A DNA stretch of 64,000 nt from assembly GCA_965199335.1 (NCBI GenBank), contig CBDAQZ010000004.1, forward strand, positions 128,666 through 192,665. The letters are read 5' to 3'. Below, piece after piece: positions 2,962 to 48,806 of the stretch. The notes under the pieces were generated by a model that saw only the letters and a program-made list of their open reading frames with translations, did not search any database and was not told where the DNA came from. The position numbers and the translations under genes are program-made. Within the stretch, counting starts at the first letter, position 1. Each line of letters starts with the position of its first letter. The stretch is from Alphaproteobacteria bacterium. GTDB taxonomy: Bacteria > Pseudomonadota > Alphaproteobacteria > CALMVH01.

Positions 2962-4449
2962 TCAAACCTTCTGAAACAGGAAGATCGTGCCATCGACCGG
3001 CTTGCCCACCTGCCTGCGCAGCATTACGTCGGTATCGCGCATCGCACGGAAGCCTTCCTTGCCGGCTGCCATTACATAGGATCGGGCGTGTTTGAAACGG
3101 CCATTGGCGATGACCATGAATTTGCGAGTGTCCTCGCTCGTTTCCAGGCTGAACATGAATAGCCCACCCGGCTTCAGCGCGCCATGGGCAGCGGCGAAAA
3201 CACCTTCCAGAGCACCGAAATAGATCAGTGAGTCAGCTGCGGCAATCAGGTCGAAACGTCCCCTTTGCCCGCCCATGAAGGCCAGCATGTCCTCTTTTAT
3301 CACGCTGTCGTAAAGACCGCTCGCGTCCGCCAGATCGACCATCAGGGGGGAAAGGTCGACGCCTATCAGGCTTCTGGCGAAGGGTTTCAGTACGCGGCCC
3401 AGCAGCCCGTTGCCGCAGCCCGCATCCAGCACATGGCCGCGCCATTCCGTACCGCCCGCATCGGTCAGCATCTTGCCCATATGTTCGGGAACGCGATAAT
3501 CGATCGAGCGCAGGAAGCTGGCATCGATCTGTCCAGCCACGCGGTCGAAATGATGCGCCAGATAGCTGTTCGGCGCGCGGACCAGCGGCTTGCCGGCATA
3601 GACCTGACGGAAATACAGCATGTCCTCGTCATCGGGATAATACTGCGCCCATTCCTCGACCAGCGCCTTGGCCGCATCCCTTTTCTCGAACGAGGCCAGG
3701 AAATTCAGAGCCCGGTTGAAGGCACTTAGCAGCACATTGTCGTCGGTCAGCGGCTTGGCAAATGCGGTGACGGCAGGCTCCGCCTCGCCATCGATCACAC
3801 CGGTCAGCATGGTCAGGAAATCGGCGTTTTCCTTATAGCCGATCTCATTGGGATCCAGAGTCGCCGCGGTCGCGTATTCGGTCAGGGCTTCATGCGGCTG
3901 TCCAAGCTGGAACAGGGTTGCCCCCAACGTCGCATGCAGCGTTGCGTTCCGCCCGCCCGCCTCGATCGCATGGCGCAGGTATTCCATCGCCTCGGTATAA
4001 TCCGCGCGTTCCAGCTCGATGCTGCCCAGCGCCATGAAGGCCTCGGCGGAGGTGGTGGCATGGCTTGCGGCAGTAGCCAGGGCTTCTTCGGCCTCCTCCA
4101 TTCTGCCGAGGCGCTTGAGCGAATAGGCTATGTTCAGCCATATCTGCGGCTGGTCCTGTTGCAGCGCCAGCGAGGCGCGGAAGGATTCCACCGCCCCCGA
4201 AAAATCTTTCTGCGCATCCAGCGCCACACCCAGATTGTTGTGATAGATCGCATGATCGGGGCGCAACGCCGCAGCGGCAGAGAAAGCCTTGACCGCCATC
4301 GAAGTGTCGCTGGCCTGGAACCGCTCCATGCCATATTGCTCCAGCGCCACCGCCGGATACTGCTTTTCACGCAACAGCTCAGCAATGCGCGGATTGCCGG
4401 CCGCCCAGTTCGGCAGCATGCTCAGCAGCTTTTCAGGATCGAGGGTCAT
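2962..4449 (-). CDS. TPR-repeat protein fused to a class I SAM-dependent methyltransferase domain
   Basis: 495 aa; N-terminal half has TPR-like helical repeats (AIYHNNLGVAL, AEAFMALGSIE); C-terminal half has methyltransferase motif I VLDAGCGNGLLG and motif post-I/II (DLIAAADSLIYF, LKPGGLFMFS). Confidence 0.75.
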   Translation of the reverse strand: MTLDPEKLLSMLPNWAAGNPRIAELLREKQYPAVALEQYGMERFQASDTSMAVKAFSAAAALRPDHAIYHNNLGVALDAQKDFSGAVESFRASLALQQDQPQIWLNIAYSLKRLGRMEEAEEALATAASHATTSAEAFMALGSIELERADYTEAMEYLRHAIEAGGRNATLHATLGATLFQLGQPHEALTEYATAATLDPNEIGYKENADFLTMLTGVIDGEAEPAVTAFAKPLTDDNVLLSAFNRALNFLASFEKRDAAKALVEEWAQYYPDDEDMLYFRQVYAGKPLVRAPNSYLAHHFDRVAGQIDASFLRSIDYRVPEHMGKMLTDAGGTEWRGHVLDAGCGNGLLGRVLKPFARSLIGVDLSPLMVDLADASGLYDSVIKEDMLAFMGGQRGRFDLIAAADSLIYFGALEGVFAAAHGALKPGGLFMFSLETSEDTRKFMVIANGRFKHARSYVMAAGKEGFRAMRDTDVMLRRQVGKPVDGTIFLFQKV

Positions 4450-4497
4450 TCTGCACTTTTAACCGCGATTACTGGCCAATCGGTTAAAGCCGTGGAA

Positions 4498-5712
4498 TTA
4501 TGACCGCATGGCTTCCATTGCCGCAACGAACCGCTCGAACAGGTAATGGCTGTCCTGCGGGCCGGGCGAGGCCTCGGGGTGGTACTGGACCGAGAATACG
4601 GGCTTGTCCTTGACCCTGAACCCCTCGTTCGAACCGTCGAACAGGCTGACATGCGTAACCTCGACGCTGTCCGGCAGCGTCTCGGGCAGCACCGCGAAGC
4701 CATGGTTCTGACTGGTGATCTCGACCTTGCCGGTCATCAGGTCCTTGACCGGGTGGTTGGCGCCGCGATGGCCGCGCGGCATCTTCGCCGTCTTGCCGCC
4801 CAGCGCCAGGGCCAGCAGCTGATGACCGAGGCAGATGCCGAATAGCGGCTTGCCGGTCGCAAGCAGGCCCTGGATCGTCGGCACGGCGTAAACGCCCGTC
4901 GCCGCCGGATCGCCCGGCCCGTTCGACAGGAAAATCCCGTCAGGCTCATGGCGCATGATATCCTCGACCGTCGCATCCGCCGGCACAACGGTGACATGGC
5001 AACCGGACGAAGCGAGAGCCCGCAATATATTACGCTTGGCCCCGTAATCGACCGCCACCACGCGATGGCGCGGCGCGGTCTGCGTGCCATAGCCGGTGCC
5101 CAGGTCCCAGCGCGTCTCGTTCCAGGTAGAGATCTGGCGCGAACAGACCTCGAGCGCCAGATCCATGCCTTCCAGCCCCGGCCATTTTTGCGATTGCGCC
5201 AGCAGGCCTTCGAGATCGAAGCGGCCATCGGGGGCATGCGCGATGACGCCGTTCGGCGCGCCGAGGTCGCGGATGCGCCGCGTCAGGCGGCGCGTATCGA
5301 TCCCGGCCAGCCCGATCAGCCCCCACGAATCCAGCCAGTCGTTGAAATGCCGCGTCGCCCGCCAGTTGGCCGGCTGGGTCAGATCGGTGCTGACGACCAG
5401 CCCGCGCGCGAACGGGGTCGTGGATTCGATATCCTCCGGATTGGCGCCGACATTGCCGATATGCGGAAAGGTGAAATTGATGATCTGCCCGGCATAGGAC
5501 GGATCGGTCAGGATTTCCTGGTAGCCAGTGATCGAAGTGTTGAAGCACACCTCCCCTACCGCCGCGCCCGCCGCGCCGATCCCGCGCCCCCAGAACACGC
5601 TGCCATCCGCCAGCACCAGGGCAGCCGTCGCGCCGTCGGGCTGGATGATCGGGGCTGAAAAGGATGGTCCTGGCGTGGGCAAGCGCTCCTCGCGCGCATC
5701 GTCAAGCGGCAT
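4498..5712 (-). CDS. carA: Carbamoyl-phosphate synthase small (glutamine amidotransferase) subunit
   Basis: 404 aa; FNTSITGYQEILTDPSY, GICLGHQLLALALG (class I amidotransferase catalytic Cys) and the HGFAV/YHPE region; true start may be internal or non-ATG. Confidence 0.9.
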   Translation of the reverse strand: MPLDDAREERLPTPGPSFSAPIIQPDGATAALVLADGSVFWGRGIGAAGAAVGEVCFNTSITGYQEILTDPSYAGQIINFTFPHIGNVGANPEDIESTTPFARGLVVSTDLTQPANWRATRHFNDWLDSWGLIGLAGIDTRRLTRRIRDLGAPNGVIAHAPDGRFDLEGLLAQSQKWPGLEGMDLALEVCSRQISTWNETRWDLGTGYGTQTAPRHRVVAVDYGAKRNILRALASSGCHVTVVPADATVEDIMRHEPDGIFLSNGPGDPAATGVYAVPTIQGLLATGKPLFGICLGHQLLALALGGKTAKMPRGHRGANHPVKDLMTGKVEITSQNHGFAVLPETLPDSVEVTHVSLFDGSNEGFRVKDKPVFSVQYHPEASPGPQDSHYLFERFVAAMEAMRS

Positions 5713-5771
5713 GGCGGACCTTCCGGGGCGAATTCGTGATGTACCTGAAGATGATTAGATAGAATACCGCG

Positions 5772-6080
5772 ATGGAAAATGCTAGGTGTCCCGCTCAACT
5801 TTTGGAGAAAATCCCAACGCGTCAACTCGCACCGGCATGGAGGCAGGCTATGGACATTATAATCGAGTTGGTTGTCCGTGAGGAAAATAAGCAAAAACTG
5901 GACGATATGATGACCAGGGAAGGGGTCGAGAAACCTGTCGATCTCCTGAACAGAGGTTTGCAGGTTTTGCATGATAGGCATCAAAGTTCTGTCGGCGGCG
6001 ACGCGGTAAGGCTGATGCAACGCGTTTTCGGTTTCAGGCCGGCTACATCTACAAAGCCGAAGCTAACGGTCGCGAAGTAA
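5772..6080 (+). CDS. Hypothetical small protein (102 aa) in an AT-richer intergenic region
   Basis: ORF only; its 3' end overlaps the 3' end of the convergent TPR-GT9 gene by 18 nt; could be spurious. Confidence 0.2.
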   Translation: MENARCPAQLLEKIPTRQLAPAWRQAMDIIIELVVREENKQKLDDMMTREGVEKPVDLLNRGLQVLHDRHQSSVGGDAVRLMQRVFGFRPATSTKPKLTVAK

Positions 6081-7604
6081 CGCCTCCGCAACCACCTGGA
6101 TCACATCGCCCCACTGGCCACGAACGCTCTGGCGGAAAATTCGCATCGTCGGATACCATACGGTCGCTTCGCCCTCGTTCAGCCATCGCCAGTCGGGCAT
6201 CATCGGGATCATCAGCCATACCGGCTTGCCGAGCGCGCCCGCCAGGTGACAGACCGAGGTATCGACCGTGATGACCAGGTCGAGCGCCAGGATCGCCGCC
6301 GCCGTCTGGGTGAAGTCGGTCAGTTCCGGCCCCAGCTTCACTAGGTTGCCGCGTCCGGACTCGTGATCCGCCGACGGGCCTTTCTGCAGCGAATAGAACG
6401 TCACATCCGGCGTATCCAGCAAGGGCCCCAGCATCTGCGCCGGGATGGAGCGCGCGAAATCGTTGAGGTTCTTCGGATTGCCCGCCCATACAAGGCCGAT
6501 TTTCAAACCATCGCCCGTCAATCGCGATTGCCACTGCGCAGCCTTCTTCGGCGCAACCTTTACATATGGCACGTCATTCGGAACCGTCGCCAGCGTCGTC
6601 GCGAAGCGTTCCGGCAGGCTCATGACGCCGACCCAGGCGGCGAAGGGCAGGTTGCCCTCCACTTCCAGCGGCGCATCGATGCGCGGGATGACGCGGATGT
6701 TGGGATGATCGAAGCCCTCGGCGAACAGCGTCGTCAGCTCGGGCAGCGTCTCGAACAATATGTCGTGGCCCTGCGCCGCTAGCAGCGGCACGTAGCGGGC
6801 GAACTGGATGATGTCGCCCAGCCCCTGCTCGGCGATGACCAGCAGCGTGCCGCCCAGTTCCTGCGGCGTCTCGCCGTGCCATACCGGCTGGCGGAACTGC
6901 CCGCGCGGTTCGCGGAAGCCGCCGTCGCGGTTCCAGCGCCACTCATATTCCTTCCAGCCCTCCGCCATGTCGCCCAGCCGCAACCGCAGCAACGCGCGTG
7001 AACAATGCGCCGATACGTTCCGCGGCTCGATTTCCAGCATGCGCGTATAGATCTCGATCGCCTGTTGCGACCGGCCGAGACCCGACAGGGCATTGGCCAC
7101 GTTCAGCAGCCCCGCAGGATCGTCCGGCTGTCCCAGCCGTTCGAGCGCCAGGGTGAAATCGGCGGCGGCTTCCAGATAGCGCCCCAACCGATCGAACGCC
7201 GAGCCGCGATTGATCAATACCGAAGTGAAATCGGGTTTCAGTTCCAGCGCGCGGGTATAGGGCGCCATCGTGTCGGCGAAGCGGCATTGTTCCTGCAGCG
7301 CGTTGCCCAGCTTGTTATAGGTTTCGGCCGCCTTGATCGTATTGCCTGCCGCTTCGTAGCTGAACGCCAGGTTCTGGAAATAATCGGGCACGCCCGGCTT
7401 CAGCATTATGGCCAGAGAGATGTATCGGATTGCCTCCTCGAAGTCCCCTTTGTGCGCGGACAGCAATCCCTTGAAGTGCCACAGATCGGGATCGTTCGGA
7501 TTTTCCTCGATCAGCTCCTGATAGATTTTCCCAGCCTCGTCGAAACGGCCTGCCTTGTGCAGCTCGGCGGCTTCGCGGAAGCGGGGATGTTCGAGCAGGC
7601 TCAT
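6063..7604 (-). CDS. TPR-repeat protein with C-terminal glycosyltransferase family 9 (heptosyltransferase)-like domain, paralog 4 of 4
   Basis: ORF 6063..7769; the likely start is MSLLEHPRFREAAELHKAGRFDEAG (M56), which gives an ATGA overlap with the upstream paralog's stop; N-terminal TPRs; GT9-like motif LVIAEQGLGDIIQFARYVPLLAAQGHDILFE and C-terminal TAAAILALDLVITVDTSVCHLAGALGKPVWLM. Confidence 0.8.
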   Translation of the reverse strand: MSLLEHPRFREAAELHKAGRFDEAGKIYQELIEENPNDPDLWHFKGLLSAHKGDFEEAIRYISLAIMLKPGVPDYFQNLAFSYEAAGNTIKAAETYNKLGNALQEQCRFADTMAPYTRALELKPDFTSVLINRGSAFDRLGRYLEAAADFTLALERLGQPDDPAGLLNVANALSGLGRSQQAIEIYTRMLEIEPRNVSAHCSRALLRLRLGDMAEGWKEYEWRWNRDGGFREPRGQFRQPVWHGETPQELGGTLLVIAEQGLGDIIQFARYVPLLAAQGHDILFETLPELTTLFAEGFDHPNIRVIPRIDAPLEVEGNLPFAAWVGVMSLPERFATTLATVPNDVPYVKVAPKKAAQWQSRLTGDGLKIGLVWAGNPKNLNDFARSIPAQMLGPLLDTPDVTFYSLQKGPSADHESGRGNLVKLGPELTDFTQTAAAILALDLVITVDTSVCHLAGALGKPVWLMIPMMPDWRWLNEGEATVWYPTMRIFRQSVRGQWGDVIQVVAEALLRDR

Positions 7605-9142
7605 GCGGCCAGCCTGTCGAGCTCGCGCCCGATCTGTGCAACCACGCCCGTCCAATCGTCCGGCTTCCTCTGCCGGAACAATCGGGTCTTCGGGTACCAC
7701 GGCATATCCCGGCGCTTCATCTGCATCCGCCAGTCGAGGATGCGCGGCATCATGATCCAGACCGGGCAATCGAGCGCGCCCGCCAGATGCGCGACGGACG
7801 AGTCGATGCTGATCACCAGATCCAGGTTCCCGATCGCGGCTGCCGTATCCGCGAAATCGTGCAATCGCTCGTCGAGCGATAAAATGTTCTGTGACGCGAA
7901 GACGTGGCGCGCCGCTTCGCCTTTCTGCAACGAATAGAAACGAACCTTGTCCCGCGCCAGCAGCGGTTCCAGCACATCCGGCGTCTGGATCGAGCGTATC
8001 CTGTCCAGCGGCGCGGCGGGGCCACCGCGCCAGACCAGGCCGACATTAATCCGCCCGTCGCGCGGCACGATGTCGCCCCACTGCGCGATACGCTGGGGCA
8101 ATACGGACAGATACGGCGTCTGCGCCGGTATGGTCTTAGGCGTGATGCCGAAGCGATGCGGCAGGCTCATCACGCTGACCAGAGCCACGAACGGCAAATC
8201 ACCGAACAGCTTACCCGAAGCTTGTCTAGGGATCACGCGGATGCGTGGCTGGTCGCGCCACGCTTCGCCGAACAGCGCGTGCAGTTCGGGCTGTACCTCG
8301 AACAGCACATCGTGCCCGCGCGCCGCCAGCAGCGGAACGTAGCGGGAGAAATGGATCGTGTCGCCCAGCCCCAGCTCCGCCAGCACCAGCAGAGGCCCCG
8401 CCAGGTCCGCCGGCGACTCGCCGCGCCATACGCGGCCCGACAATCCGGCCCTGGTCTCGTTGTGATGGACGCCGTCAACGCAGCGCCATTCGTATTCGGC
8501 GAAGCCGTCCACCAGATCGCCTTTCATAAGCAGCGCCAGCGACAGGCTGCGATGCGCTTCGATATTGCCGGGATACAGATCGATCGCCTTCCTGAAAGCC
8601 TTGGCCGCCCTCGACGGCTTGCCGAGGAAATAATGGCAGTTGCCGATGTTGGAGAGCACCAGGGACCGTTCCCGCGCATCCTTTAAGGTTCCTTCGACTT
8701 CACGCAGGATTCCCAGTGCGTTTTTATAGTCGCCGACCTCGTTCAGGGTCGCGGCATAATTGATCGCCGCCCAATGGTTCCGTGGGTCTTGAACCATGCC
8801 TTTCTGAAAGGCTTCTTTCGCCTGTAACAGCTGGCCACGCCGCTGCAGCCGAACGCCCTGTTCGTTGTAGTTATGCGACGCCTGCCTGGCATCGCCCGCC
8901 TGCTGGTGGCTGATCGCCAGACTTTGGTAGAACTCCGGTTCCTCCCGAATTTCTATCGCCTGCTCGATCAACGCGATCGCTTGCTTCTGATCGCCTGTAT
9001 GGCTGGCGAGCAGGCCACGAAAATGCAGCAGGTCGGGATCGCGCGGAAACTTCGCCGCAAGTGCGAGGTATTTCCGTTCCGCCTCGTCATGTCGGCCGCT
9101 TTGATGCAGGGCGACCGCTTCGGCCATTTCCGTCCTGTTCAT
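7601..9142 (-). CDS. TPR-repeat protein with GT9-like domain, paralog 3 of 4
   Basis: ORF 7601..9313; likely start MNRTEMAEAVALHQSGRHDEAERKY (M58) overlapping the upstream stop (ATGA); motif LLVLAELGLGDTIHFSRYVPLLAARGHDVLFE; C-terminal TAAAIGNLDLVISIDSSVAHLAGALDCPVWIM. Confidence 0.8.
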   Translation of the reverse strand: MNRTEMAEAVALHQSGRHDEAERKYLALAAKFPRDPDLLHFRGLLASHTGDQKQAIALIEQAIEIREEPEFYQSLAISHQQAGDARQASHNYNEQGVRLQRRGQLLQAKEAFQKGMVQDPRNHWAAINYAATLNEVGDYKNALGILREVEGTLKDARERSLVLSNIGNCHYFLGKPSRAAKAFRKAIDLYPGNIEAHRSLSLALLMKGDLVDGFAEYEWRCVDGVHHNETRAGLSGRVWRGESPADLAGPLLVLAELGLGDTIHFSRYVPLLAARGHDVLFEVQPELHALFGEAWRDQPRIRVIPRQASGKLFGDLPFVALVSVMSLPHRFGITPKTIPAQTPYLSVLPQRIAQWGDIVPRDGRINVGLVWRGGPAAPLDRIRSIQTPDVLEPLLARDKVRFYSLQKGEAARHVFASQNILSLDERLHDFADTAAAIGNLDLVISIDSSVAHLAGALDCPVWIMMPRILDWRMQMKRRDMPWYPKTRLFRQRKPDDWTGVVAQIGRELDRLAA

Positions 9143-10695
9143 GCTGCGCGGCGATTGGCGGTCAGGCGGTCCAGCGCGCGACCGATATCGGTTATCACGC
9201 CCGCCCAGTCGCCCTGTTTTTTCTGCCGGAACAGCTTCGTGCGCGGATACCATGGCGAGTCCTCGCGCTTCAGCATCCAGCGCCAGTCGAGAATGGCGGG
9301 CATCGGCAGCCACACCTCGGCCCCGACTGCGCCTGCCAAATGCGCCACGGCGGAGTCGATGCAGATCACCAGATCCAGGTGGCGGATGGCGGCGGCGGTA
9401 TCGGCGAAGTCGCGCAGCCTTTCGTGAAGCATGACGATGTTGTCAGAGTGGAATTCGTGCGCCGCCGCATCGCCGACCTGCAGCGAATAGAAGCGAACGC
9501 CCTTACGCGCCAGCAACGGTTCCAGCGCATCGGCCGGCATGGAACGGAGATGATCGTGCGGCGTGTTCGCGCTGCCGCGCCAGACCAGACCGACCTTGAA
9601 GGCACCATCGTCGGGCAGCAGCGAATTCCATTGCTTCAGCCGCACCGGGCTGACGGCCAGATACGGAGTGTCTCCCGGTATGCTGGCCAGCGTGGTGCCG
9701 AACCGGTCCGGCAGGCTCATCACGCTGACGAAGGCGGCGAAGGGAAGGCTGTTGAAGACCTTGCCGTTCGGCTGCCGTCGGATGACGCGGATACGATCGT
9801 CGCCCGCCCAGCCTTCGCTGAACAAGGCGTAGAGTTCGGGCTGGACTTCGAACAGCACCCGATGTCCACGGTCCGCCAGCAATTTGACGTAGCGCGAGAA
9901 ATGGATGGTGTCGCCGAAGCCCTGTTCCGATAGCACCAGAATGGCGCCACCCAGTTCCTCGGGCGATTGCCCGCGCCATAGCGGTTGCGTGAAGGACCGC
10001 TTGGCCTCGCTATAGGGAATACCATCCGTGCAGCGCCATTCGTATTCGGCGAACCCCTCGCGGATTTTGCCCTCCGCCAGCAGGATGACCGAGCGATTGC
10101 GGTGCGCCTCGATAGCCTCGGGATAGCTCTCGATCGCCTGGGCGAAGCAGTCCAGCGCGCGGTCGCTCCTGCCGAGATAGTAGTGGCAGTTGCCCATGTT
10201 CGACAGGATGTACGAACGCTCCTTCGGCAGCTTCAGCCGCTTCTCGACCTTGCGCAGGATCTCCAGTGCGCGGTCGTACAGGCCCAGCTCGTTCAGCACC
10301 GCGGCATGATTGGCCACCGCCCAATGATTGTCGGCGTCCTGCGCCTGCGCCTTCTCGAAGGCCAGCAGCGCCTCCGGCAGCTGGCGGCGCTGTTGCAGCA
10401 CGACGCCCTGCTGGTTGTGAGCCATCGACGCCGCCTGCGCTTCGCCCATCGCCTGCAGGGTGATCGCCAGGTTCTGGTGGAATTCAGGTGCGTCGGGTTT
10501 CAGCGCGATGGCTTCGGTGATGAAGCGGACCGCCTCGGCCTGATTGCCGGTGTGGCTGGCCAGCAGGCCGCGAAAATGCATCAGGTCGGGATCGCGCGGA
10601 AACAGCCGCGCCAGCTGGCGGTATCTTTTATCCGCCTCGTCGTGCCGCCCCTGCTGGTGCAGGGCGACGGCCTCGCCCATCGATTTCCGGTTCAT
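9139..10695 (-). CDS. TPR-repeat protein with GT9-like domain, paralog 2 of 4
   Basis: 518 aa; starts MNRKSMGEAVALHQQGRHDEADKRY; motif ILVLSEQGFGDTIHFSRYVKLLADRGHRVLFE; C-terminal TAAAIRHLDLVICIDSAVAHLAGAVGAEVWLPM; ATGA overlaps at both junctions. Confidence 0.8.
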   Translation of the reverse strand: MNRKSMGEAVALHQQGRHDEADKRYRQLARLFPRDPDLMHFRGLLASHTGNQAEAVRFITEAIALKPDAPEFHQNLAITLQAMGEAQAASMAHNQQGVVLQQRRQLPEALLAFEKAQAQDADNHWAVANHAAVLNELGLYDRALEILRKVEKRLKLPKERSYILSNMGNCHYYLGRSDRALDCFAQAIESYPEAIEAHRNRSVILLAEGKIREGFAEYEWRCTDGIPYSEAKRSFTQPLWRGQSPEELGGAILVLSEQGFGDTIHFSRYVKLLADRGHRVLFEVQPELYALFSEGWAGDDRIRVIRRQPNGKVFNSLPFAAFVSVMSLPDRFGTTLASIPGDTPYLAVSPVRLKQWNSLLPDDGAFKVGLVWRGSANTPHDHLRSMPADALEPLLARKGVRFYSLQVGDAAAHEFHSDNIVMLHERLRDFADTAAAIRHLDLVICIDSAVAHLAGAVGAEVWLPMPAILDWRWMLKREDSPWYPRTKLFRQKKQGDWAGVITDIGRALDRLTANRRAA

Positions 10696-12290
10696 GCCGC
10701 CCGCCTTTCCACAAGCTGGTCCAGCGCGCCGCGCATGCCCTCGATCACCGCGCCCCAGTCGCCGTAGCGTGCCTGCCTGAACAGCCGCGCCGAGGGATAC
10801 CAGGGCGACGTATCGCCGCTCATCAGCCAGCGCCAGTCAGGCACATGCGCCAGCATCAGCCACATCGGCGTACCCAGCGCGCCTGCCAGATGCATGACGG
10901 CGGTATCGACCCCGATCATGAGGTCCAAATTCTGCACTGCCGCCGCGGTTTCGGCGAAATCGTTCAGTTCCTCGTCAAGCACCGTCACGTTGTTGCCGGG
11001 GAAACGATAACCCGCGGCCGGTCCTTTCTGCAGCGAATAGAACGCGATGTCGTCGCGTTGCAGCAGGCCGTGCAGGGTCTCCGGCGGCAGCGAGCGTTCG
11101 AAATTCTTCAGGTGCAGCGGGTTGCCGCCCCAGACCAGGCCGACCCGGGGCCGACCCGCCGGATCGCGCAGACGCTCGGCCCAGCGCGACGACCGTTCAG
11201 GCGCGACGCCGAGATAGGGAACGTCCGCCGGTACGTTGTGGATAGTGGTGCCGAACAGGCGTGGCAGGCTGAACGTGCCGGTGTAGGCGGCGAAATGTAT
11301 GTCCGCGTACGCATCGGCATCGCTGCCCTGCGCCCGAACCAGGTGGATGGCGTCGTTCGCCAGCCCCTCCGAGAACAGCGCCCACAGCTCCGGCTTGACC
11401 TCGAACAGCACCTCGTGCCCCCGTTGCGCCAACAGGCGCAGATAGCGGCACAGCATGATCGCATCGCCATATCCCTGTTCACTGAGCACGAACAGCGGAC
11501 CGCCGAGTTCCTCCGGGCTTTCGCCCATCCATACGCGGCGCTCAAGAGCGGCCTTGCTGTATTTGGGATCTTTCCAGCGCCATTCGAATTCACACCAGCC
11601 TTCCTCGTACTGTCCGTTCAGCAGCAACGCGATGGCGAGGTCGTTGTGCCCTTCCGGCAGCATCGGGTTGAGCGACTGCGCGCGGCGATAGGATTCGATT
11701 GCCTCTTCGACCAGGCCGAGGCCGTGCAGCGAGTTGGCGTAGTTGAGATGGACGCCGGGCAGCTGGCGCAGGAATCCCCCGGGCAGCGGCGTGCCGTTCC
11801 AGTGCGCCAGGTCGCGCGGCATGCGCGGGTCGGGCAGCAGCGCGCGGCCCAGGTGATCGCGCGCCTCGGCATAGCGGCCCAGCCGGTTGAGCATCACGCC
11901 GAGATTGTTGGGCGCATGCTCGTTGCGCGGGTCGATCTCCGCCGCCTGCGTGAAGGCGTCGATCGCTTCCTCCAGCCGGTTCTGGTCGCTGAGTATATTG
12001 CCCATCGTGATCAGCACCTCGGCCGCCTTGGGATGATCGCCCAGGCGGCGCAGGGTCACGGACAGGTTCTTTTGGAAATCGGGCACGGCGGGTGACAGCG
12101 CGATGGCACGCCGGATACGCGCCACCGATTCCAGCAGATTGCCGACCTGCCCCGCCAGCACGCCGGTCAGGTGGACCACGTCCGCGTTCTGCGGGTTTTC
12201 CGCCTCCAGCGTGCGGTAGCGGTCCCAGGCCTCGTCGAACCGGCCCGCGGTGTGCAGATCCATCGCTTCCTTCAGGCGGGGGTCGATCAT
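10692..12290 (-). CDS. TPR-repeat protein with GT9-like domain, paralog 1 of 4 (first in operon)
   Basis: 532 aa; starts MIDPRLKEAMDLHTAGRFDEAWDRY; motif LFVLSEQGYGDAIMLCRYLRLLAQRGHEVLFE; C-terminal TAAAVQNLDLMIGVDTAVMHLAGALGTPMWLM. Confidence 0.8.
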   Translation of the reverse strand: MIDPRLKEAMDLHTAGRFDEAWDRYRTLEAENPQNADVVHLTGVLAGQVGNLLESVARIRRAIALSPAVPDFQKNLSVTLRRLGDHPKAAEVLITMGNILSDQNRLEEAIDAFTQAAEIDPRNEHAPNNLGVMLNRLGRYAEARDHLGRALLPDPRMPRDLAHWNGTPLPGGFLRQLPGVHLNYANSLHGLGLVEEAIESYRRAQSLNPMLPEGHNDLAIALLLNGQYEEGWCEFEWRWKDPKYSKAALERRVWMGESPEELGGPLFVLSEQGYGDAIMLCRYLRLLAQRGHEVLFEVKPELWALFSEGLANDAIHLVRAQGSDADAYADIHFAAYTGTFSLPRLFGTTIHNVPADVPYLGVAPERSSRWAERLRDPAGRPRVGLVWGGNPLHLKNFERSLPPETLHGLLQRDDIAFYSLQKGPAAGYRFPGNNVTVLDEELNDFAETAAAVQNLDLMIGVDTAVMHLAGALGTPMWLMLAHVPDWRWLMSGDTSPWYPSARLFRQARYGDWGAVIEGMRGALDQLVERRAA

Positions 12291-12359
12291 GTTTGCTCTG
12301 GCGTTGATTGACAGGGACGGGCGGAGACGGTCAATTGATCCTACACGAGGAGAAACGAA

Positions 12360-12818
12360 ATGTTGCGCGAACGTTTGAACGACACGTTAAAGGATGCGAT
12401 GCGGGCCAAGGAGCAGGGAACGGTTTCGACCCTGCGGATGGTGCTGGCCGCGATCAAGGACAAGGACATCGCCGCCCGGCCCTCCGGCAACGCGGACGGC
12501 ATCGGCGAGCCCGAGATACTGTCGCTGATGCAGGGCATGATCAAGCAGCGCCGCGAATCGATCGCCATGTACCGCCAGGGCAACCGCGAAGACCTCGCCG
12601 CCAAGGAGGAGGAGGAGATCGCGGTGATCGAGCGCTATCTGCCGCAGCAGATGGATGCCGAAGCCGTGAAAACCGCCATCGACGCCGCCGTTGCCGAAAC
12701 AGGCGCGGCGTCGGTCAAGGACATGGGCAAGGTCATGGCCGCGCTGAAGGCCAAATACGCCGGCCAGATGGATTTCGGCGCCATCGGCCCAGAGGTGAAG
12801 GCGCGGCTGGGCGGGTAA
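12360..12818 (+). CDS. GatB/YqeY domain-containing protein
   Basis: 152 aa; LKDAMRAKE...LRMVLAAIKDK...IKQRRESIAMY...EEEIAVIERYLP is the YqeY signature. Confidence 0.85.
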   Translation: MLRERLNDTLKDAMRAKEQGTVSTLRMVLAAIKDKDIAARPSGNADGIGEPEILSLMQGMIKQRRESIAMYRQGNREDLAAKEEEEIAVIERYLPQQMDAEAVKTAIDAAVAETGAASVKDMGKVMAALKAKYAGQMDFGAIGPEVKARLGG

Positions 12819-12819
12819 T

Positions 12820-13173
12820 ATGGGAAATCCGAACGAGACAGTCACCCTCTGGCGGCCTGTAGGGCCGGAAGAGTTGAGGTTGATCGAAGCAAGCGCCATG
12901 AAAGCGTTTCCTCCACGCCTTGCCGAGCAGCCTATTTTCTATCCGGTCCTGACCGAGGCTTATGCTATCAAGATCGCGCGCGACTGGAATGTACCCGCTA
13001 GCGGTGCTGGGTTCGTAACACGCTTCGAAGTACTGAAATCATACCTGAATGATTATCCTGTACAGGAAGCAGGCGGCCGCGATCATCTTGAGTACTGGAT
13101 TCCGGCTGAAGACATGGATAAATTCAATGCGGCGATTGTCGGCAAGATTGGAATAGTCCGTTCATTCCCGTGA
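12820..13173 (+). CDS. Conserved hypothetical protein (117 aa)
   Basis: ORF tightly packed between the yqeY-like gene and the MFS gene, overlapping the MFS start by 4 nt; no family assigned from sequence alone. Confidence 0.45.
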   Translation: MGNPNETVTLWRPVGPEELRLIEASAMKAFPPRLAEQPIFYPVLTEAYAIKIARDWNVPASGAGFVTRFEVLKSYLNDYPVQEAGGRDHLEYWIPAEDMDKFNAAIVGKIGIVRSFP

Positions 13174-14459
13174 AGTTTGGTAAGAAATCCGGCACTGACG
13201 TACTCACCTCTTCCGAACGCAGCATCGTGCGGCTGGTCAGCGCGATCCAGTTCATCAATATCCTGGATTTCCAGATGGTCATGCCGCTGGGCGCGGATTT
13301 CGCCCGCGACCTGGGCATCCCTGCCAGCGACATCGGCTGGGTGACCGGGGCGTACACGGCGGCGGCCTTCCTGTCCGGCATCGCCGGCGCGGCGCTGCTG
13401 AACCGGGTCAACCGGCGGCTGGCGCTGGCGATCAGCCTGTGGGGGCTGGTCATCTCCACCGCCCTTGGCGGCCTGTCGACCAGCTACGCCACGCTGATCT
13501 GCGCCCGCATTCTGGCCGGCTTCTTCGGCGGTCCCGCCGTGTCGCTGTCCTACGCGGTGCTGGCCGACGGCGTCGCCGAGGAACGGCGCGGCCAGGCGAT
13601 GGGCATCGTCTCGGGCATCTATTCCGTGGCGGGCATCGTCGGCCTGCCGATCGGGTTGAAGCTTGCCGAGTGGGGCAGCTGGCGGCTGCCGTTCTTCGCC
13701 ATCGCCCTGGTCGGCGTGGGCCTCGTGCTGATGGTACTGCGCGCCACCCGCCCGATGGCCGCCAACGCCCGCGACGAAAGCGACCGCGTCCAGCAGATTG
13801 CGGCATTGACCCGCGGCAACCGACGCAGCGTCGGGCTGGCCTTCGCCGTCACCTTCATCGCCCTGTTCGGCAATTTCCTGCTGGTACCCAGCGTTGCCGC
13901 CTACCTGCAATTGAACCTGGGCTACCCGCGTAGCCACCTGTCCCTGCTGTATGTGACCGGCGGGATCGTGACCTTCCTGACGACGCGCTTGGTGGGGCGC
14001 ATGACCGACCGCTTCGGCTCGGCACGGATGATCTTGGGAGCGACGCCCTGCATCGTCGGCGTCTATTATTGCCTGTTCGTGCATTATTCGCCGCTGGTGC
14101 CGGTCCTGCTGCTGTTCGTGCTTTCGGGCGTCTGCAATTCCTCGCGCTATGTGATCGTCACCACCGAGACCTCGAAGGTGCCGCCCCCCGACCAGCGCCC
14201 CGGCTTCATGTCGCTGATGAGCGCGGCGCAGGCGCTGGGGCAGAGCCTGGGTGCGTTCGGTTCGTCGCTGATCCTGGTCGATACCGGCACGGACCGGCCG
14301 CTGCTGCACATGGGCCGCGTCGCCTGCCTGGCCTCGTTGCTGGCGGCGATCGTGCCGGTGCTTCTGATCCGGCTGCGGCACATGAACCATCGCCGTGCCA
14401 AGGACCAGGAAACCATCGACGCCCTGAATGCGACGGCCGCCGAGCAGACAGGCGCATGA
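13170..14459 (+). CDS. MFS transporter
   Basis: 429 aa; about 12 predicted TM helices; MFS-type motifs between TM2-3 (LLNRVNRRLALAISL) and the repeat in the second half. Confidence 0.85.
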   Translation: MKFGKKSGTDVLTSSERSIVRLVSAIQFINILDFQMVMPLGADFARDLGIPASDIGWVTGAYTAAAFLSGIAGAALLNRVNRRLALAISLWGLVISTALGGLSTSYATLICARILAGFFGGPAVSLSYAVLADGVAEERRGQAMGIVSGIYSVAGIVGLPIGLKLAEWGSWRLPFFAIALVGVGLVLMVLRATRPMAANARDESDRVQQIAALTRGNRRSVGLAFAVTFIALFGNFLLVPSVAAYLQLNLGYPRSHLSLLYVTGGIVTFLTTRLVGRMTDRFGSARMILGATPCIVGVYYCLFVHYSPLVPVLLLFVLSGVCNSSRYVIVTTETSKVPPPDQRPGFMSLMSAAQALGQSLGAFGSSLILVDTGTDRPLLHMGRVACLASLLAAIVPVLLIRLRHMNHRRAKDQETIDALNATAAEQTGA

Positions 14460-22215: not shown

Positions 22216-24180
22216 TCACATCCCGTAGGCGACTTCCTTGCTGTTGCTGGCCTGCAAATTGCGATACCGTGCCAGCGCCATCAGCGGAAAGAACAGGCGG
22301 TAGCCGTGGTAGCGCAGGTAGAACACCTTGGCGAAACCGACCGCCGTATATGGTTTTTCTTCCCACTCGCCGTCGGCATCCTGGGTGCGGATCAGGTATT
22401 CGACACCGCGTGCCACCGCCGGGTGATTGACCTCGCCGGCGGCCATCAGGCCCAGCAGCGCCCACGCGGTCTGCGACGGGTTGCTACGGTGATACTGGCC
22501 GGGAGGAGCGGCATCGTAGGATTCGTTGTCCTCGCCCCAGCCGCCATCCTCGCGCTGCGTCGCGGTCAGGAAAGCGACGGCACGGCGCATGGTCATGTCC
22601 TCGTGCGGCATGCCGATCGCGTTCAGCGCGCACAGCACCGACCAGGTGCCGTAGATGTAGTTGGTACCCCAGCGGCCATACCACGAGCCGTCCCTTTCCT
22701 GGTCGGCCTTCAGGTACTCGACCGCCCTGGTGATCGCGGGCTCGAACATCGTATAGCCGCGCTGCGCCAGGAAGCTGAGGCAGCGGGCGGTCACGTCCGC
22801 CGTCGGCGGGTCCAGCAGCGCGCCGTGATCGGCGAACGGGATGTGATTCAGGTAGTAATGCGTATTGTCGGAATCGAACGCGCCCCAGCCGCCGTTCCTG
22901 CTCTGTACGCCCAGTATCCATTCCTCGGCGCGGGCGATCGATTCGCTGTGCTTCTCGGCATCGACGCGGTCCATCAGCATCGCCACCACCGCCGTGTCGT
23001 CGACATCGGGATAATGCGGGTTCTCATACTGGAACGCCCAGCCGCCCGGCCGCACATGCGGCCGCTGTACCGCCCAGTCGCCGACAACGTCCAGGACCTG
23101 CTTCGGCTTCAGCCAGTCGGCGCCGCGCCGCGCCGACTTCAGGCCCTCGCCGCCCATCTCGGCCAGCGCGTGGCCGGCAAGTCCGGTATCCCAGATCGGC
23201 GACAGGCAGGGTTGGCAATAGGTGCGTTCGTCGTCCAGCACCAGTAGCTTGCGCAGCGATTGCTTGGCGATTTCGATATGCGGATGGTCGGCGGTGTAGC
23301 CCAGGCAGTCGAACATCATGACGCTGTTCGCCATCGCCGGGTAAATCGCACCCAGGCCGTCCTCGCCGTTCAGGCGCTCGACCACGAAGGCGACGGCCTT
23401 GTCGATGCAGCGGGCGCGATGGCCCTTGGGGAAAAGCGGCTCGGCGACGCGCAATACGCGGTCGATGCTGCCGAAGATATGGCCCCAGCGCGAACGGTAC
23501 GGTCCGCGGATCCAGTCGGTGATCTGCTGCGGATCGCGGCGGAACAGCTCCTGTATCGCGACTCCGCGCGGGTTACGCGCCTGCGGCTTGCGGCTCATCA
23601 TCACCAGCAGCGGCACCATGACGGTGCGCGACCAGTACGATACCTTGTCGAGGTGGAAGGGGAACCAGCGCGGCAGCTTCATGATCTCGACCGGCATGAC
23701 CGGCACGGCGCGCCATGGCACCTGCCCGAACAGGGCCAACTGGATACGGGTGAAGACGTTGGTCCGCTCGGCGCCGCCATGGGCCAGGATCGCCTCGCGG
23801 GCGCGGATCATGTGCGGCTGGTCGGCATCGTCGCCCACGGCTTTCAGCGCGAAATAGGCTTTTACGCTGGCGGACAGGTCGAACTTGCCGTCATAGAACA
23901 GAGGCCAGCCGCCGTGATCGGCCTGGGTCGAGCGCAGGAAAGCCGCCATGCGGTCCTGCAAAACCTCATCTATCTCGTCGAGGTAATGCTGCAGCAGGAT
24001 GTATTCGGACGGAATGGTTGCATCCGCTTCCAGCTCGAACACCCAATGCCCGTCGGTGTTCTGGCGGCGCATCAAAGCCTCGCCGGCCCGATCGATCGAA
24101 AAGGCAAGTTTCGCCTCCTCGGTAAACTTCGCTGCGGAATTCTGGGAACGGCGGGGAAACTGGACGACGTTTGGACGCAT
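22216..24180 (-). CDS. shc: Squalene-hopene cyclase
   Basis: 654 aa; DVDDTAVV catalytic motif (VDDTAVVAML), multiple QW motifs (GSWYGRWG, GGWGE). Confidence 0.95.
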   Translation of the reverse strand: MRPNVVQFPRRSQNSAAKFTEEAKLAFSIDRAGEALMRRQNTDGHWVFELEADATIPSEYILLQHYLDEIDEVLQDRMAAFLRSTQADHGGWPLFYDGKFDLSASVKAYFALKAVGDDADQPHMIRAREAILAHGGAERTNVFTRIQLALFGQVPWRAVPVMPVEIMKLPRWFPFHLDKVSYWSRTVMVPLLVMMSRKPQARNPRGVAIQELFRRDPQQITDWIRGPYRSRWGHIFGSIDRVLRVAEPLFPKGHRARCIDKAVAFVVERLNGEDGLGAIYPAMANSVMMFDCLGYTADHPHIEIAKQSLRKLLVLDDERTYCQPCLSPIWDTGLAGHALAEMGGEGLKSARRGADWLKPKQVLDVVGDWAVQRPHVRPGGWAFQYENPHYPDVDDTAVVAMLMDRVDAEKHSESIARAEEWILGVQSRNGGWGAFDSDNTHYYLNHIPFADHGALLDPPTADVTARCLSFLAQRGYTMFEPAITRAVEYLKADQERDGSWYGRWGTNYIYGTWSVLCALNAIGMPHEDMTMRRAVAFLTATQREDGGWGEDNESYDAAPPGQYHRSNPSQTAWALLGLMAAGEVNHPAVARGVEYLIRTQDADGEWEEKPYTAVGFAKVFYLRYHGYRLFFPLMALARYRNLQASNSKEVAYGM

Positions 24181-24227
24181 TTATGCTCAACTCGTTTTGA
24201 GTTGTGTGACAAGGTTTGGCAATAATT

Positions 24228-25478
24228 TCAAGTATTTTTAATGACTAGCCGTGCCGCCTCGTGCCCGGACTTGACCGATCCCTCGATGGTGCTGGGCAGG
24301 CCGGTATCGGTCCAGTCGCCCGCCAGGAACAGGTTTTCCCAGCGTGTCTTGCCGTTCGGGCGCAGTTTCAGCTGGTCCGGCGTTGCCGCGAACGTCGCCC
24401 GTTTTTCCTTCACGATGCGCAATTTCGGCCTTTGTTCGGGCAGGTCGTAGATGCGGCTGAGGTCGTTCCACACCATCTGGCCCAGCGACTCGGTCGACAT
24501 ATCGGCCAGATGATCGGCGGCGCTGATGGTGACGGACAGGATGCCGGGCTTGATGAAAACCCATTCCGCCGTACCGCCCACGATCCCGATGAACGGCGGA
24601 ATGCGTGGCGGCAAGTCGACCTTGTAGTGCAGGTTGACGATGGAGCGGTGCTCCGTCGGCGCGGTCAGTCCCGGAAGCAGCATCGCCGCCACCGGCGCGG
24701 TCACGGCCAGGACGATCGGGATACCGGGGGCGATCGGTATGATCTCCCCGCCCGAAACCTCGATCGCCCGCGCGGCGCTGCCGTGGAAGACGATGCGCGA
24801 GATGCGGCTTTGCAGGTGCATCTGCCCGCCCTGCCGTTCGATATAGGAAATGGCCGGAACGACAAGGCTTTCCGACAGCCCCTCCTTCGGCACCAGCGGC
24901 ACGCAGGCAGCGCCTCCCGCTCCAAGCGTTTCGCGGATGATGGTCCAGAACAGCCGCGCAGAACCCTCGCTGGACCGCGTGTTCAGCGCCGAAATGCAAA
25001 GCGGGTCCCACAGGCGGCGATACAGGACGGACGATGTATCGAGCGTTTCCGCCACCGTTGCCTCCGGCCGGGCACGGGCAAGCCGCAACGGCTCGAAGTA
25101 ATCGCGGGCCTTCGTTCCCGGCACGCGGCGCCTGGCGTCGAACAGCCAGAGCGGCAGCTTGCCGCGGCTGGGTGTCAGTTCCCAGCGTTCGCCGGTGGTC
25201 AGGTCGATGAAGGGGAAGAGCGGCTGCTTCGGTCCCACCAGCGTATCGCGCGCGCCGACGGTGGACAGATAGCGCATGACATGCGGATTGCCCGACAGCA
25301 GCAGGTGATTGCCGTTGTCGATCTTGGCATCCAGCTCCTTGTCGTAATACGACCGGCATCGGCCGCCCGCCTGGGGGCCCGCCTCGTAGACCTGCGGCGC
25401 ATAGCCCTTTCTAGCCAGCGCCACGGCGGCGGCAAGGCCGGCCATGCCGGCGCCTATGATGTAGACGGGCTTGCTCAT
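24228..25478 (-). CDS. hpnE: Hydroxysqualene dehydroxylase HpnE (amine-oxidase/phytoene-desaturase family flavoprotein)
   Basis: 416 aa; N-terminal FAD fold IIGAGMAGLAAAVAL; position within the hpn cluster. Confidence 0.85.
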   Translation of the reverse strand: MSKPVYIIGAGMAGLAAAVALARKGYAPQVYEAGPQAGGRCRSYYDKELDAKIDNGNHLLLSGNPHVMRYLSTVGARDTLVGPKQPLFPFIDLTTGERWELTPSRGKLPLWLFDARRRVPGTKARDYFEPLRLARARPEATVAETLDTSSVLYRRLWDPLCISALNTRSSEGSARLFWTIIRETLGAGGAACVPLVPKEGLSESLVVPAISYIERQGGQMHLQSRISRIVFHGSAARAIEVSGGEIIPIAPGIPIVLAVTAPVAAMLLPGLTAPTEHRSIVNLHYKVDLPPRIPPFIGIVGGTAEWVFIKPGILSVTISAADHLADMSTESLGQMVWNDLSRIYDLPEQRPKLRIVKEKRATFAATPDQLKLRPNGKTRWENLFLAGDWTDTGLPSTIEGSVKSGHEAARLVIKNT

Positions 25479-26324
25479 TTACAGGATCGTGTACTTCACC
25501 GCGAACCACAGCTTGCGCCATTTCGGCACCTTCACCGGCTGGTCCAGCTTCGTCCAGCCGCGCTTTTCCAGCGCGGTCAGGGTCGCCTTGTAGCTGGCGG
25601 CCATCAGCCGCGCCGGTCGCATCGCCCTGGCGTTGCAATCGTTCATCGCGGCTTCGGCCTGCTTGAAATAGCGGTGTGCCTGCGCCGCCATGCGCTGGCA
25701 GACCTTGGGCAGGTTGGGGTCGTTCTGCATGCGGATGGCGATGGTCATCTTGACCCCGGCATCGCGCAGCCAGCCGCCCGGCAGGTACATGCGCCCGCGC
25801 TCGGCATCCTCGTGGATGTCGCGCAGGATGTTGGTGAACTGCAGCGCCCGGCCCAGCGCCCATGCCACATCGTCGGCGCGCGGGCTGTCGTCGCCGAACG
25901 CCCGTACCGACAGCCGCCCGACGGCGGAGGCGACACGGTCGCAGTACAGGTCCAGATCGTCCCAGGCGGGGGCCACGATCTCGGCGATGGCGTCGCTTTC
26001 CATGCCGTCGATGATCGCGATGAAGTCTTCCTGCCGCAGCTTGTATTCGGCCACCGGCTTTGCCAGCACCGTGGTGATCGCGTCGCTGGGCCGGCCGCGA
26101 TACAGCTGCGCGATCCGGTCGCGCCATTGCTGCAGCTCGGTCCGTTTCTTTTCCTGCGCACCCGGCTCGTCCGCGATGTCGTCGACCACGCGACAGAAGG
26201 CATAGACGCCGTACATCGCCATGCGCCGGTCCGGCTCCAGGATGCGCATGCCCTGGTAGAACGACGTGCCCGACCGCTTGACGATCGTCTCCACCTCGGC
26301 AGCGGCGGCGCTCAGATCAGCCAT
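25479..26324 (-). CDS. hpnD: Presqualene diphosphate synthase HpnD (squalene/phytoene synthase family)
   Basis: 281 aa; YAFCRVVDDIADE aspartate-rich motif; cluster context. Confidence 0.85.
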   Translation of the reverse strand: MADLSAAAAEVETIVKRSGTSFYQGMRILEPDRRMAMYGVYAFCRVVDDIADEPGAQEKKRTELQQWRDRIAQLYRGRPSDAITTVLAKPVAEYKLRQEDFIAIIDGMESDAIAEIVAPAWDDLDLYCDRVASAVGRLSVRAFGDDSPRADDVAWALGRALQFTNILRDIHEDAERGRMYLPGGWLRDAGVKMTIAIRMQNDPNLPKVCQRMAAQAHRYFKQAEAAMNDCNARAMRPARLMAASYKATLTALEKRGWTKLDQPVKVPKWRKLWFAVKYTIL

Positions 26325-35211: not shown

Positions 35212-36333
35212 TCATTCGGCAAGCCCTGGAAGTGAGCGGCTCAGACGGTGATCGTATTCGTTTAGCGACATGACCGCCTGCGTGACTTTCGGCGACAGAA
35301 GCGGCGTACCGGCGGCACGTTCGGCCATGTAGTGTGAAATCGCGCCCGCGGCCTCGGCGTGGAATGACTGGCGGCCGAGGTTGTTGAGCGGATACCACAG
35401 CGCGCGGTTGGCACCGCGCAGCCACAGGAATTGCGCCGGGGCCAGAACGCCGCCGCGATCGCGCGAATAGCCGAGCAGCCGCAGCATCGCGGTGGTCACG
35501 AACGCATGGTTCGCCGTAACCTTGGCAGCCTCGCCGCCCAGTTTCGGGTCCTTGACGATGCGATCGATCTCCTTGCGCAGCGTCGCGGTGGGACGCAGGG
35601 CCATGTCGCTTTTCGGATCGGCGCACAGCGCCAGCTCACCCAGCAGCTTGTCCGCTTCCTCGCGCTGGCGGGCGGCTTTGAGGGCAAACACCGCGAACAG
35701 CGCCTTGACATGGAACGGCAGGGCATCGGGTCCGCGCCATCTGGGCCCCAGCTGCTCGGCGAATGCCTGCGCGACAGCCACCTGGTCCAGCCCGTCCGGC
35801 CCGTGCGGAATGGAGTTGTATTTCAGCCACTCCTCGGGCGACAGAGCCTCGGCGAACAGCGGCAGTTCGGTCGGTGTCTCGCCATTGGGATCGCGGGCGT
35901 TATCGACAGCGGGGTTGAACTTTATGATCGGGGAGATCACCGGCCATATCTTGGCCTGCGCGGCAATCAGCTTGTCGAGGGAATAGGCCTTGCGGTAGCT
36001 GGATTTGGGCGCCGAAACCATGAGCAGATAGGCCATGGTCACCAGGATGATCATGATCGGCCAGCGCAGGAAATGACCGGCCAGCCGCGCGGCGTAGCGG
36101 ATATAGGGCCAGTCGATGTCGTAGTGCTTGGGATCGTGAAGTATGTCGCGAACGGCGGGAACGGCGGGATCGGATACGATGCGACTCAGCAGCCAGAACT
36201 CGCCGTAGGTGAAGATGCGGAAGAGTTCCGTGACCTGCTTGTGGAAAAAATGCCAGAACAGCCAGGCGAGAACTATAAACCCGGCCATATAGACCGCATA
36301 GGTCGTGTCGCGCGTTTCTATATTTCCGGCCAT
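35212..36333 (-). CDS. Inner-membrane protein resembling DotM/IcmP (TrbA of IncI plasmids), the partner of DotL-type coupling proteins
   Basis: 373 aa, close to the 376 aa of Legionella DotM; N-terminal TM helices then a large soluble domain; adjacent to the DotL-like gene in the same orientation. Confidence 0.4.
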   Translation of the reverse strand: MAGNIETRDTTYAVYMAGFIVLAWLFWHFFHKQVTELFRIFTYGEFWLLSRIVSDPAVPAVRDILHDPKHYDIDWPYIRYAARLAGHFLRWPIMIILVTMAYLLMVSAPKSSYRKAYSLDKLIAAQAKIWPVISPIIKFNPAVDNARDPNGETPTELPLFAEALSPEEWLKYNSIPHGPDGLDQVAVAQAFAEQLGPRWRGPDALPFHVKALFAVFALKAARQREEADKLLGELALCADPKSDMALRPTATLRKEIDRIVKDPKLGGEAAKVTANHAFVTTAMLRLLGYSRDRGGVLAPAQFLWLRGANRALWYPLNNLGRQSFHAEAAGAISHYMAERAAGTPLLSPKVTQAVMSLNEYDHRLSRSLPGLAE

Positions 36334-48722: not shown

Positions 48723-48760
48723 TTCGCAAATCTCCAGCGCGTAAAATCCTATTGCGCATA

Positions 48761-48789: not shown

Positions 48790-48806
48790 GGGCAGGATGA
48801 TATATA

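Follow-up and report, generated by a model that had tools for sequence, protein, structure and literature searches.

The closest described relative of the proteins reported here is FlmG, the flagellin O-glycosyltransferase of Caulobacter crescentus (CCNA_01524) and Brevundimonas subvibrioides. FlmG joins a region of tetratricopeptide repeats (TPR) at its N terminus (residues 1-313) to a C-terminal glycosyltransferase domain of the GT-B fold (residues 309-596; PMC7591256), and experiments have divided the labour between the two, with the TPR region binding flagellin and the GT-B domain choosing the donor (PMC7591256; bioRxiv 10.1101/2022.03.25.485807), for which it selects cytidine monophosphate (CMP)-pseudaminic or CMP-legionaminic acid (bioRxiv 10.1101/2022.03.25.485807). 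A single FlmG serves six flagellins in Caulobacter (PMC7591256), and the literature treats the protein as narrowly distributed and restricted to the Caulobacterales (bioRxiv 10.1101/2023.12.03.569772). We investigated an array of four genes, W1 to W4, lying between yqeY and carA in a 64,000-nucleotide stretch of an alphaproteobacterial assembly (contig CBDAQZ010000004.1, positions 128,666 to 192,665; hereafter the window). Their products, like FlmG of Caulobacter and Brevundimonas, each combine an N-terminal TPR region with a C-terminal GT-B domain of ~290 residues in one polypeptide of ~500-600 residues, and share with FlmG an EQGLGD motif, an LDLxI...NLAGAxGxPxW block and a WYP...F tail. However, flmG is a single gene beside flagellins and genes of the pseudaminic acid pathway, whereas W1-W4 form a coupled set of four paralogs, and the 64 kb contain neither flagellar nor nonulosonate genes.

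Other described systems resemble the array in part. Glycosyltransferase family 9 (GT9) enzymes such as WaaC, WaaF and the protein of PDB entry 3tov are unlike W1-W4 in sequence (10-16% identity, with sequence models matching only ~30 residues); they lack TPR repeats, use lipid A-Kdo acceptors and are encoded in lipopolysaccharide (LPS) core clusters, whereas W1-W4 carry TPR repeats and have no LPS core context. The bacterial autotransporter heptosyltransferases (BAHT) TibC and Aah also lack TPR repeats, form iron-containing dodecamers (4rap entry; cited in PMC7591256) and are encoded beside their autotransporter substrate, but the window of W1-W4 contains no autotransporter. HMW1C and OGT (bacterial and eukaryotic), which pair TPR with a GT41 domain, perform the TPR-guided cytoplasmic protein glycosylation that we propose for W1-W4. 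Maf proteins (MAF_flag10) are similar in that they O-glycosylate flagellin in the cytoplasm and in some cases have a TPR domain that binds the acceptor, and two Maf paralogs can differ in site specificity (bioRxiv 10.1101/2023.12.03.569772); their catalytic fold, however, is GT-A and unrelated to the GT-B fold of W1-W4.

All four genes are on the minus strand, and each open reading frame (ORF) was found where the original prediction had placed it, translating without internal stops into a protein of 513-532 residues. W1 adjoins yqeY (10692-12290, 532 residues; TPR at ~11580-12290, GT-B at ~10692-11579), carries the motifs EQGYGD (11463-11480) and VDTAVMHL (10887-10910), and has an insertion of ~20 residues in its TPR region. 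Next come W2 (9139-10695, 518 residues; TPR at ~10027-10695, GT-B at ~9139-10026; EQGFGD at 9910-9927 and IDSAVAHL at 9337-9360) and W3 (7601-9142, 513 residues; TPR at ~8474-9142, GT-B at ~7601-8473; ELGLGD at 8360-8377 and IDSSVAHL at 7784-7807). W4 adjoins carA (6063-7604, 513 residues; EQGLGD at 6813-6830 and VDTSVCHL at 6243-6266), and its domains, taken from the structural model described below, are TPR helices at residues 7-224 (6933-7604) and GT-B at residues 225-513 (6063-6932). The predicted ATGA overlaps are present at all three junctions (10692-10695, 9139-9142 and 7601-7604, minus strand), each within a GCATGA in which the TGA stop overlaps the next ATG. Public gene calls include the exact W1, W2 and W4 proteins; W3 with the same start is not on record.

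The paralogs fall into three orthogroups, set by an identity matrix over the window and four relatives: A (W1), B (W2 and W3, the latter a lineage-specific duplicate of W2) and C (W4). Identity is ~40-43% between groups and 60% between W2 and W3. Paralogs from different groups share 31-38% identity in their TPR halves and 46-50% in their glycosyltransferase (GT) halves, and orthologs show similar identity in both halves, a pattern compatible with paralogs that differ mainly in what they bind.

We then assessed the domain assignment, which the original prediction had given as TPR plus a GT9 signature. The TPR part was borne out, with strong Pfam matches over residues ~1-215 in W1-W4, while GT9 membership proved marginal: PF01075 (Glyco_transf_9) scored 24.3, 16.9, 17.4 and 22.6 bits on W1, W2, W3 and W4 against a cut-off of 22, and did so over one short motif of 30-34 residues near residues 430-476, corresponding to ~172-205 of 247 model positions. 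NCBIfam heptosyltransferase models (WaaC, WaaF, WaaQ) reached at most 20 bits on W1-W4, compared to cut-offs of 170-467. PF13844 (GT41) gave no match in W1-W4, although the same model readily finds TPR-GT41 neighbours in other loci, and a four-protein profile searched against PDB sequences matched nothing but TPR proteins and the TPR regions of OGT, which was uninformative for the catalytic domain. Structure prediction agreed with the proposed GT9-like fold. An AlphaFold2 model of W4, built from a 40-sequence alignment (mean predicted local distance difference test score 93.4, predicted template modelling score 0.87), has TPR helices at residues 7-224 followed by two Rossmann-like halves, and its nearest solved folds are the GT9 enzymes WaaC and WaaF (PDB 2h1f, 1psw), a GT9 protein (3tov) and TibC, with 231-243 residues aligned to each at 10-16% identity. 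A profile comparison of the family with E. coli WaaC (hhalign) produced a single aligned block, LDLVItVDTSvaHLAGALG on WaaC 245-275, which places the family VDTSvaHL on WaaC 260-267 and its VDT...H on WaaC D261, T262 and H266, a motif present in W1-W4. The term GT9-like is therefore right for the fold and one donor-site motif and wrong for sequence-family membership.

The two motifs quoted in the original prediction occur in all four proteins but are inexact in W2 (GAEVWLP) and W3 (ELGLGD, LDCPVW). EQGxGD and [VI]D[TS]xxxHLAGA are kept throughout W1-W4, apart from the change of Q to L in W3, and across ~140 family domains hardly any variation is seen in the GD motif or the D-T/S...H donor motif. 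On these residues, all four proteins appear catalytically intact.

FlmG was examined because analysis of gene neighbourhoods, described below, pointed to flagellin. We used the published cloning primer FlmG_N (PMC7591256, supplementary file 3) as an exact DNA probe and found one matching metagenome contig, on which a 598-residue ORF starts at the primer site, diverges from flbT and is followed by cytidylyltransferase and GNAT genes. This layout matches the Caulobacter flmG-flmH neighbourhood, and the nearest relatives of this FlmG ortholog are Caulobacter proteins of 596-599 residues. W4 aligned with the ortholog over both domains in BLASTP (26% identity, E 4e-31), and the family alignment matched it over 490 columns in hhalign (probability 100%, E 5.5e-41). 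With a profile built from only the GT domain, the ortholog scored 116 bits (E 1e-37, profile positions 22-289 of 294) and the E. coli enzymes WaaC, WaaF and WaaU 7-21 bits. By these alignments, the relation of W1-W4 to FlmG, which had been put forward as a likeness, is true homology over both domains and not mere analogy.

The family to which W1-W4 and FlmG belong is very large. A word-indexed search returned 7,716 relatives at E <= 1e-5, nearly all labelled 'tetratricopeptide repeat protein', and a search of 1.84 billion representatives (50% identity clusters) with the GT-domain-only profile yielded 42,478 proteins at E <= 1e-3, of which 22,341 reached E <= 1e-30. The evidence places FlmG as a divergent branch within it.

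Our neighbourhood survey covered 83 related loci, with a species-level genome collection and metagenomes as sources; we called ORFs, assigned family members with the GT-domain hidden Markov model, clustered the other ORFs and annotated the commonest clusters. A flagellin gene lies within 10 kb of a family member in 18 of the 83 loci. Twelve of these 18 are Bradyrhizobium-like alphaproteobacteria, and the other six belong to Nitrospirota, Thermodesulfobacteriota, Bacteroidota and Geobacterales; the flagellins of these six are short (271-287 residues) and lie within ~1 kb of the family gene, mostly directly adjoining it. FlbT occurs in 11 of the 83 loci and FlaF in several, and many members of the wider family, like flmG itself, adjoin flagellin, flbT or flaF. 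Family copies in Paraburkholderia adjoin a CheW-receiver gene, and in ~15 loci the family is accompanied by TPR-GT41 genes. Azospirillum, which a neighbour-joining tree of GT domains places as sister group to the window clade, has the gene order tpsA-tpsB-[TPR-GT9-like]-[TPR-GT41], seen as operon-like rows in A. cavernae (L086, 2830-13800) and A. doebereinerae (L087, 2419-13881), in which tpsA encodes 1790-1922 residues and tpsB a ShlB/POTRA_2 protein of two-partner secretion (TPS). The tpsA-tpsB-GT-GT layout mirrors hmw1A-B-C, although the row, unlike HMW1ABC, has a pair of cytoplasmic glycosyltransferases that belong to different families. Flagellin is thus the commonest partner of the family and not its sole one, and the company of the family suggests a general class of cytoplasmic, TPR-addressed enzymes that glycosylate exported proteins.

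Multi-module organisation is widespread in this family. Tandem arrays of 3-6 genes occur on contigs of Planctomycetota (L008) and Tepidisphaeraceae (L071) and on contigs labelled uncultured Bacteroidetes (L062) and uncultured Pseudomonadota (L083), and several family arrays, like W1-W4, sit among housekeeping genes with no substrate gene nearby. The modules also occur fused into [TPR-GT]n polypeptides: L072 (13677-20378, minus strand; 2,233 residues), L079 (18-6143, plus strand; 2,041 residues), L062 (9974-16037, plus strand, with a natural two-module fusion at 9974-13117) and L080 (2771-9818, plus strand). The giant-fusion genes of these four contigs directly adjoin short (271-281 residues) flagellin genes. 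Among the 150 best-scoring representatives, 149 contain 2-6 modules, with sizes of up to 3,140 residues (proteins P0245-P0393). Fusion of modules is classical evidence that separately encoded modules cooperate. The suggestion that several copies work together therefore gains support from hundreds of natural fusions, which support, without proving, the idea of a machine for W1-W4.

We compared the locus with four related alphaproteobacterial metagenome contigs (L001-L004), all of which have one frame: yqeY comes first, between one and three family genes follow, and small variable genes, in many cases toxin-antitoxin pairs, precede carA. Orthogroup A always adjoins yqeY (identity to W1: L004 72%, L001 67%, L003 54%, L002 50%) and orthogroup C lies on the carA side (identity to W4: L004 71%, L001 69%, L003 69%, L002 56%); both are kept in all five genomes at ~43% mutual identity. 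Orthogroup B, to which W2 and W3 belong, shares 58-62% identity with the L001 middle gene (W2 62%) and is missing from two relatives. W2 and W3 are a younger duplication. G+C content is 0.64 in the array, 0.66 in carA and 0.65 in yqeY, so that composition gives no sign of recent import. The original prediction that the copies are old and maintained agrees with these orthogroups, but its further proposal of an accessory insertion is not supported by the comparison: on synteny in four of four relatives and matching G+C, we reject a recent insertion. Because the frame is conserved in relatives and orthogroups A and C are always kept, the array is an old feature that the lineage has maintained while its copy number varied.

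We consider it likely, though far from assured, that the array is one operon encoding four TPR-guided protein glycosyltransferases of the FlmG superfamily, of which FlmG is the only characterised member, and that these work as a set on an exported protein whose gene lies elsewhere. By homology with FlmG, W1-W4 would be cytoplasmic, with the N-terminal TPR solenoid binding an unfolded or secretion-competent acceptor and the C-terminal GT-B domain using a nucleotide-activated donor to place a sugar on Ser/Thr ahead of acceptor export. Their target would be encoded elsewhere in the genome; the leading candidate is flagellin, and the main alternative is a large secreted adhesin of the kind seen in the Azospirillum sister group. 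Every paralog would bring its own acceptor surface or site, and perhaps its own sugar. W1-W4 keep the VDTxxxHL motif that is replaced in FlmG orthologs; a nucleoside diphosphate (NDP)-sugar donor of the GT9 type, such as ADP-heptose, is therefore likelier for them than CMP-pseudaminic or CMP-legionaminic acid. The hetero-oligomer and sequential action suggested in the original prediction, and the nature of the substrate, are likewise inferred. A bolder version is possible but doubtful: the array may be a modular assembly line in which each [TPR-GT] module docks on its own surface of one exported non-flagellin protein and adds its own sugar from a GT9-type donor, the modules jointly building a defined multi-site or multi-sugar coat, with FlmG as a late single-module offshoot re-tooled for CMP-nonulosonates.

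Several observations weigh against a set of FlmG-like protein glycosyltransferases. Identity between W1-W4 and FlmG is just 22-28%, and the donor-site motif differs, being [FY]SNATxNL in 120 of 120 Caulobacter-type FlmG orthologs examined versus [VI]D[TS]xxxHL in W1-W4 and nearly the whole wider family. We detected no gene for flagellin, FlbT, FlaF, TPS, an autotransporter or the nonulosonic acid or heptose pathways in the 64-kb window, in keeping with the original prediction that the substrate is not encoded there, nor any such substrate or donor gene within 10 kb in the four closest relatives (L001-L004); tblastn of the window with flagellin, FlbT, FlaF, TpsA, TpsB and GT41 queries likewise gave no matches. 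Azospirillum, the nearest outgroup, is linked to a TPS exoprotein, not flagellin. Fusion in other lineages is no proof of physical association among W1-W4, and TPR repeats evolve fast in general, which makes their divergence weak evidence for different acceptors.

Cooperation is the first point on which the favoured reading can be challenged. W1-W4 could instead be independent enzymes with separate substrates or conditions, co-transcribed only through tandem duplication and forming neither a complex nor a sequential pathway. The copy number of one to three between yqeY and carA in relatives, where orthogroup B is dispensable, would fit such independence, as would the stronger divergence of the TPR halves, the acceptor-binding part in FlmG, and the fact that one FlmG suffices for the six Caulobacter flagellins (PMC7591256). 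We nonetheless regard independence as rather unlikely, given that orthogroups A and C are always retained together, that three ATGA overlaps favour stoichiometric co-expression, and that single-polypeptide fusions of 2-6 modules are very common in the family. A different challenge concerns the acceptor: the array could encode glycolipid or polysaccharide glycosyltransferases, for example true GT9 LPS core heptosyltransferases, with TPR repeats as a scaffold. Its nearest solved folds (WaaF, WaaC and a GT9 protein), the conserved equivalent of WaaC D261/T262/H266, the scores of W1 and W4 marginally above the PF01075 cut-off and the JGI label 'ADP-heptose:LPS heptosyltransferase' on some relatives all point this way, but the heptosyltransferase models fall far below their cut-offs (at most 20 bits versus 170-467), the GT-domain profile prefers FlmG to WaaC, WaaF and WaaU (116 versus 7-21 bits), and no LPS core or heptose genes lie near the array. 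Since the family is moreover linked to flagellin and TPS protein substrates, and its sole experimentally studied member glycosylates a protein (PMC7591256), a lipid or polysaccharide acceptor is very improbable.

Activity itself could also be questioned, as some or all copies might be catalytically dead TPR adaptors or pseudoenzymes that regulate or chaperone a secreted protein, as FlbT and FlaF do with flagellin. All four proteins retain the GD-motif Asp presumed to be catalytic and an intact D-T/S...H motif, both motifs are nearly invariant across the ~140 family domains, and the GT halves of W2 and W3 are 46-50% identical to the other GT halves; we give a loss of catalysis very little credence. 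We retain, as the reading we favour, an operon of four TPR-guided protein glycosyltransferases acting as a set.

The genes that frame the array were as described in the original prediction, as judged by model scans. carA, encoding the carbamoyl-phosphate synthase small subunit (4498-5712, minus strand), and a YqeY-family gene (12360-12818, plus strand), which diverges from W1, are conserved flanks, and a gene for a 495-residue TPR protein with a class I S-adenosylmethionine (SAM)-methyltransferase domain (2962-4449, minus strand) lies downstream of carA. The TPR-methyltransferase directly follows carA in three of the four relatives, and accompanies the array family in the closest relatives only, not in the wider family; it may be a further modifier of the target of the array. 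In L004 (13001-15663), the carA stop overlaps the TPR-methyltransferase start at 14188-14191 and the two are probably co-translated, and in the window (region 2962-5712) a 48-nucleotide gap separates them.

The presumed promoter region of the array is the 69-nucleotide divergent interval between W1 and the YqeY gene (12291-12359); a scan of 5600-12500 revealed no sigma-70 promoter consensus. Between the W4 stop and the carA start lies a terminator-like hairpin with a T-rich tail (5814-5835, minus strand), which is a consensus match only, in a scan whose terminator-like matches number near chance expectation. A 76-residue ORF (5850-6080, plus strand), with a GGAGG box 7 nucleotides upstream, is convergent with W4 and overlaps its last 18 nucleotides. 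Small convergent ORFs occupy the same spot in L001 (11603-11929) and L004 (12588-12833), and those of the window, L001 and L004 have in common a strand-plus-helix, ribbon-helix-helix-like look. We considered the ORF at 5850-6080 as a conserved GlfM-like specificity factor and rejected it, as it has no significant similarity to the small ORFs of relatives at that position.

A Pfam scan of the remaining ORFs of the window identified dnaG, rpoD and metG, a hopanoid cluster, DotL/DotM-like type IVB components, fatty-acid oxidation genes and two Acyl_transf_3 paralogs. The last two, which we had considered as further array paralogs and which both proved to be Acyl_transf_3 (PF01757) proteins, have 519 and 530 residues (55875-57434 and 57431-59023, minus strand) and, with a 4-nucleotide overlap, are a further case in the window of paralogs that are translationally coupled, here as a pair. 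The hopanoid/squalene cluster (22216-26324, minus strand) comprises squalene-hopene cyclase, an amine-oxidase-type flavoprotein and squalene/phytoene synthase. Two ORFs without Pfam matches, of 787 and 805 residues (in the hopanoid cluster and at 41173-43590), were discarded as candidate substrates, being antisense high-G+C artefacts over the squalene-synthase/oxidase and fatty-acid-oxidation genes. A TraG/DotL-like coupling protein (32212-34551) and a DotM_C-domain protein (35212-36333), both on the minus strand, are Dot/Icm-like type IVB components and hint at a host-associated or conjugative-element context. Finally, an HSP90-family protein of 932 residues with an N-terminal extension of ~340 residues (46866-49664, minus strand) adjoins a SIR2_2-domain protein (45024-46280, minus strand), a pairing reminiscent of defence-type loci.

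Searching for literature that joins heptosyltransferase, flagellin glycosylation and TPR, we found the FlmG paper alone, and the literature searched does not describe how broad the family is, that its donor motif is of the GT9 type, how its modules are multiplied, or this four-gene array unlinked to flagellin. FlmG, held to be confined to the Caulobacterales, falls within a family of 22,341 representatives (E <= 1e-30, 50% identity), of which the four-gene operon is a compact example with clear orthogroups. If the modules split the work by acceptor site and sugar, they would provide a simple, genetically tractable system for studying the site specificity of cytoplasmic O-glycosylation, and the family would, if this is true, offer a toolbox of TPR-addressed glycosyltransferases for glyco-engineering.

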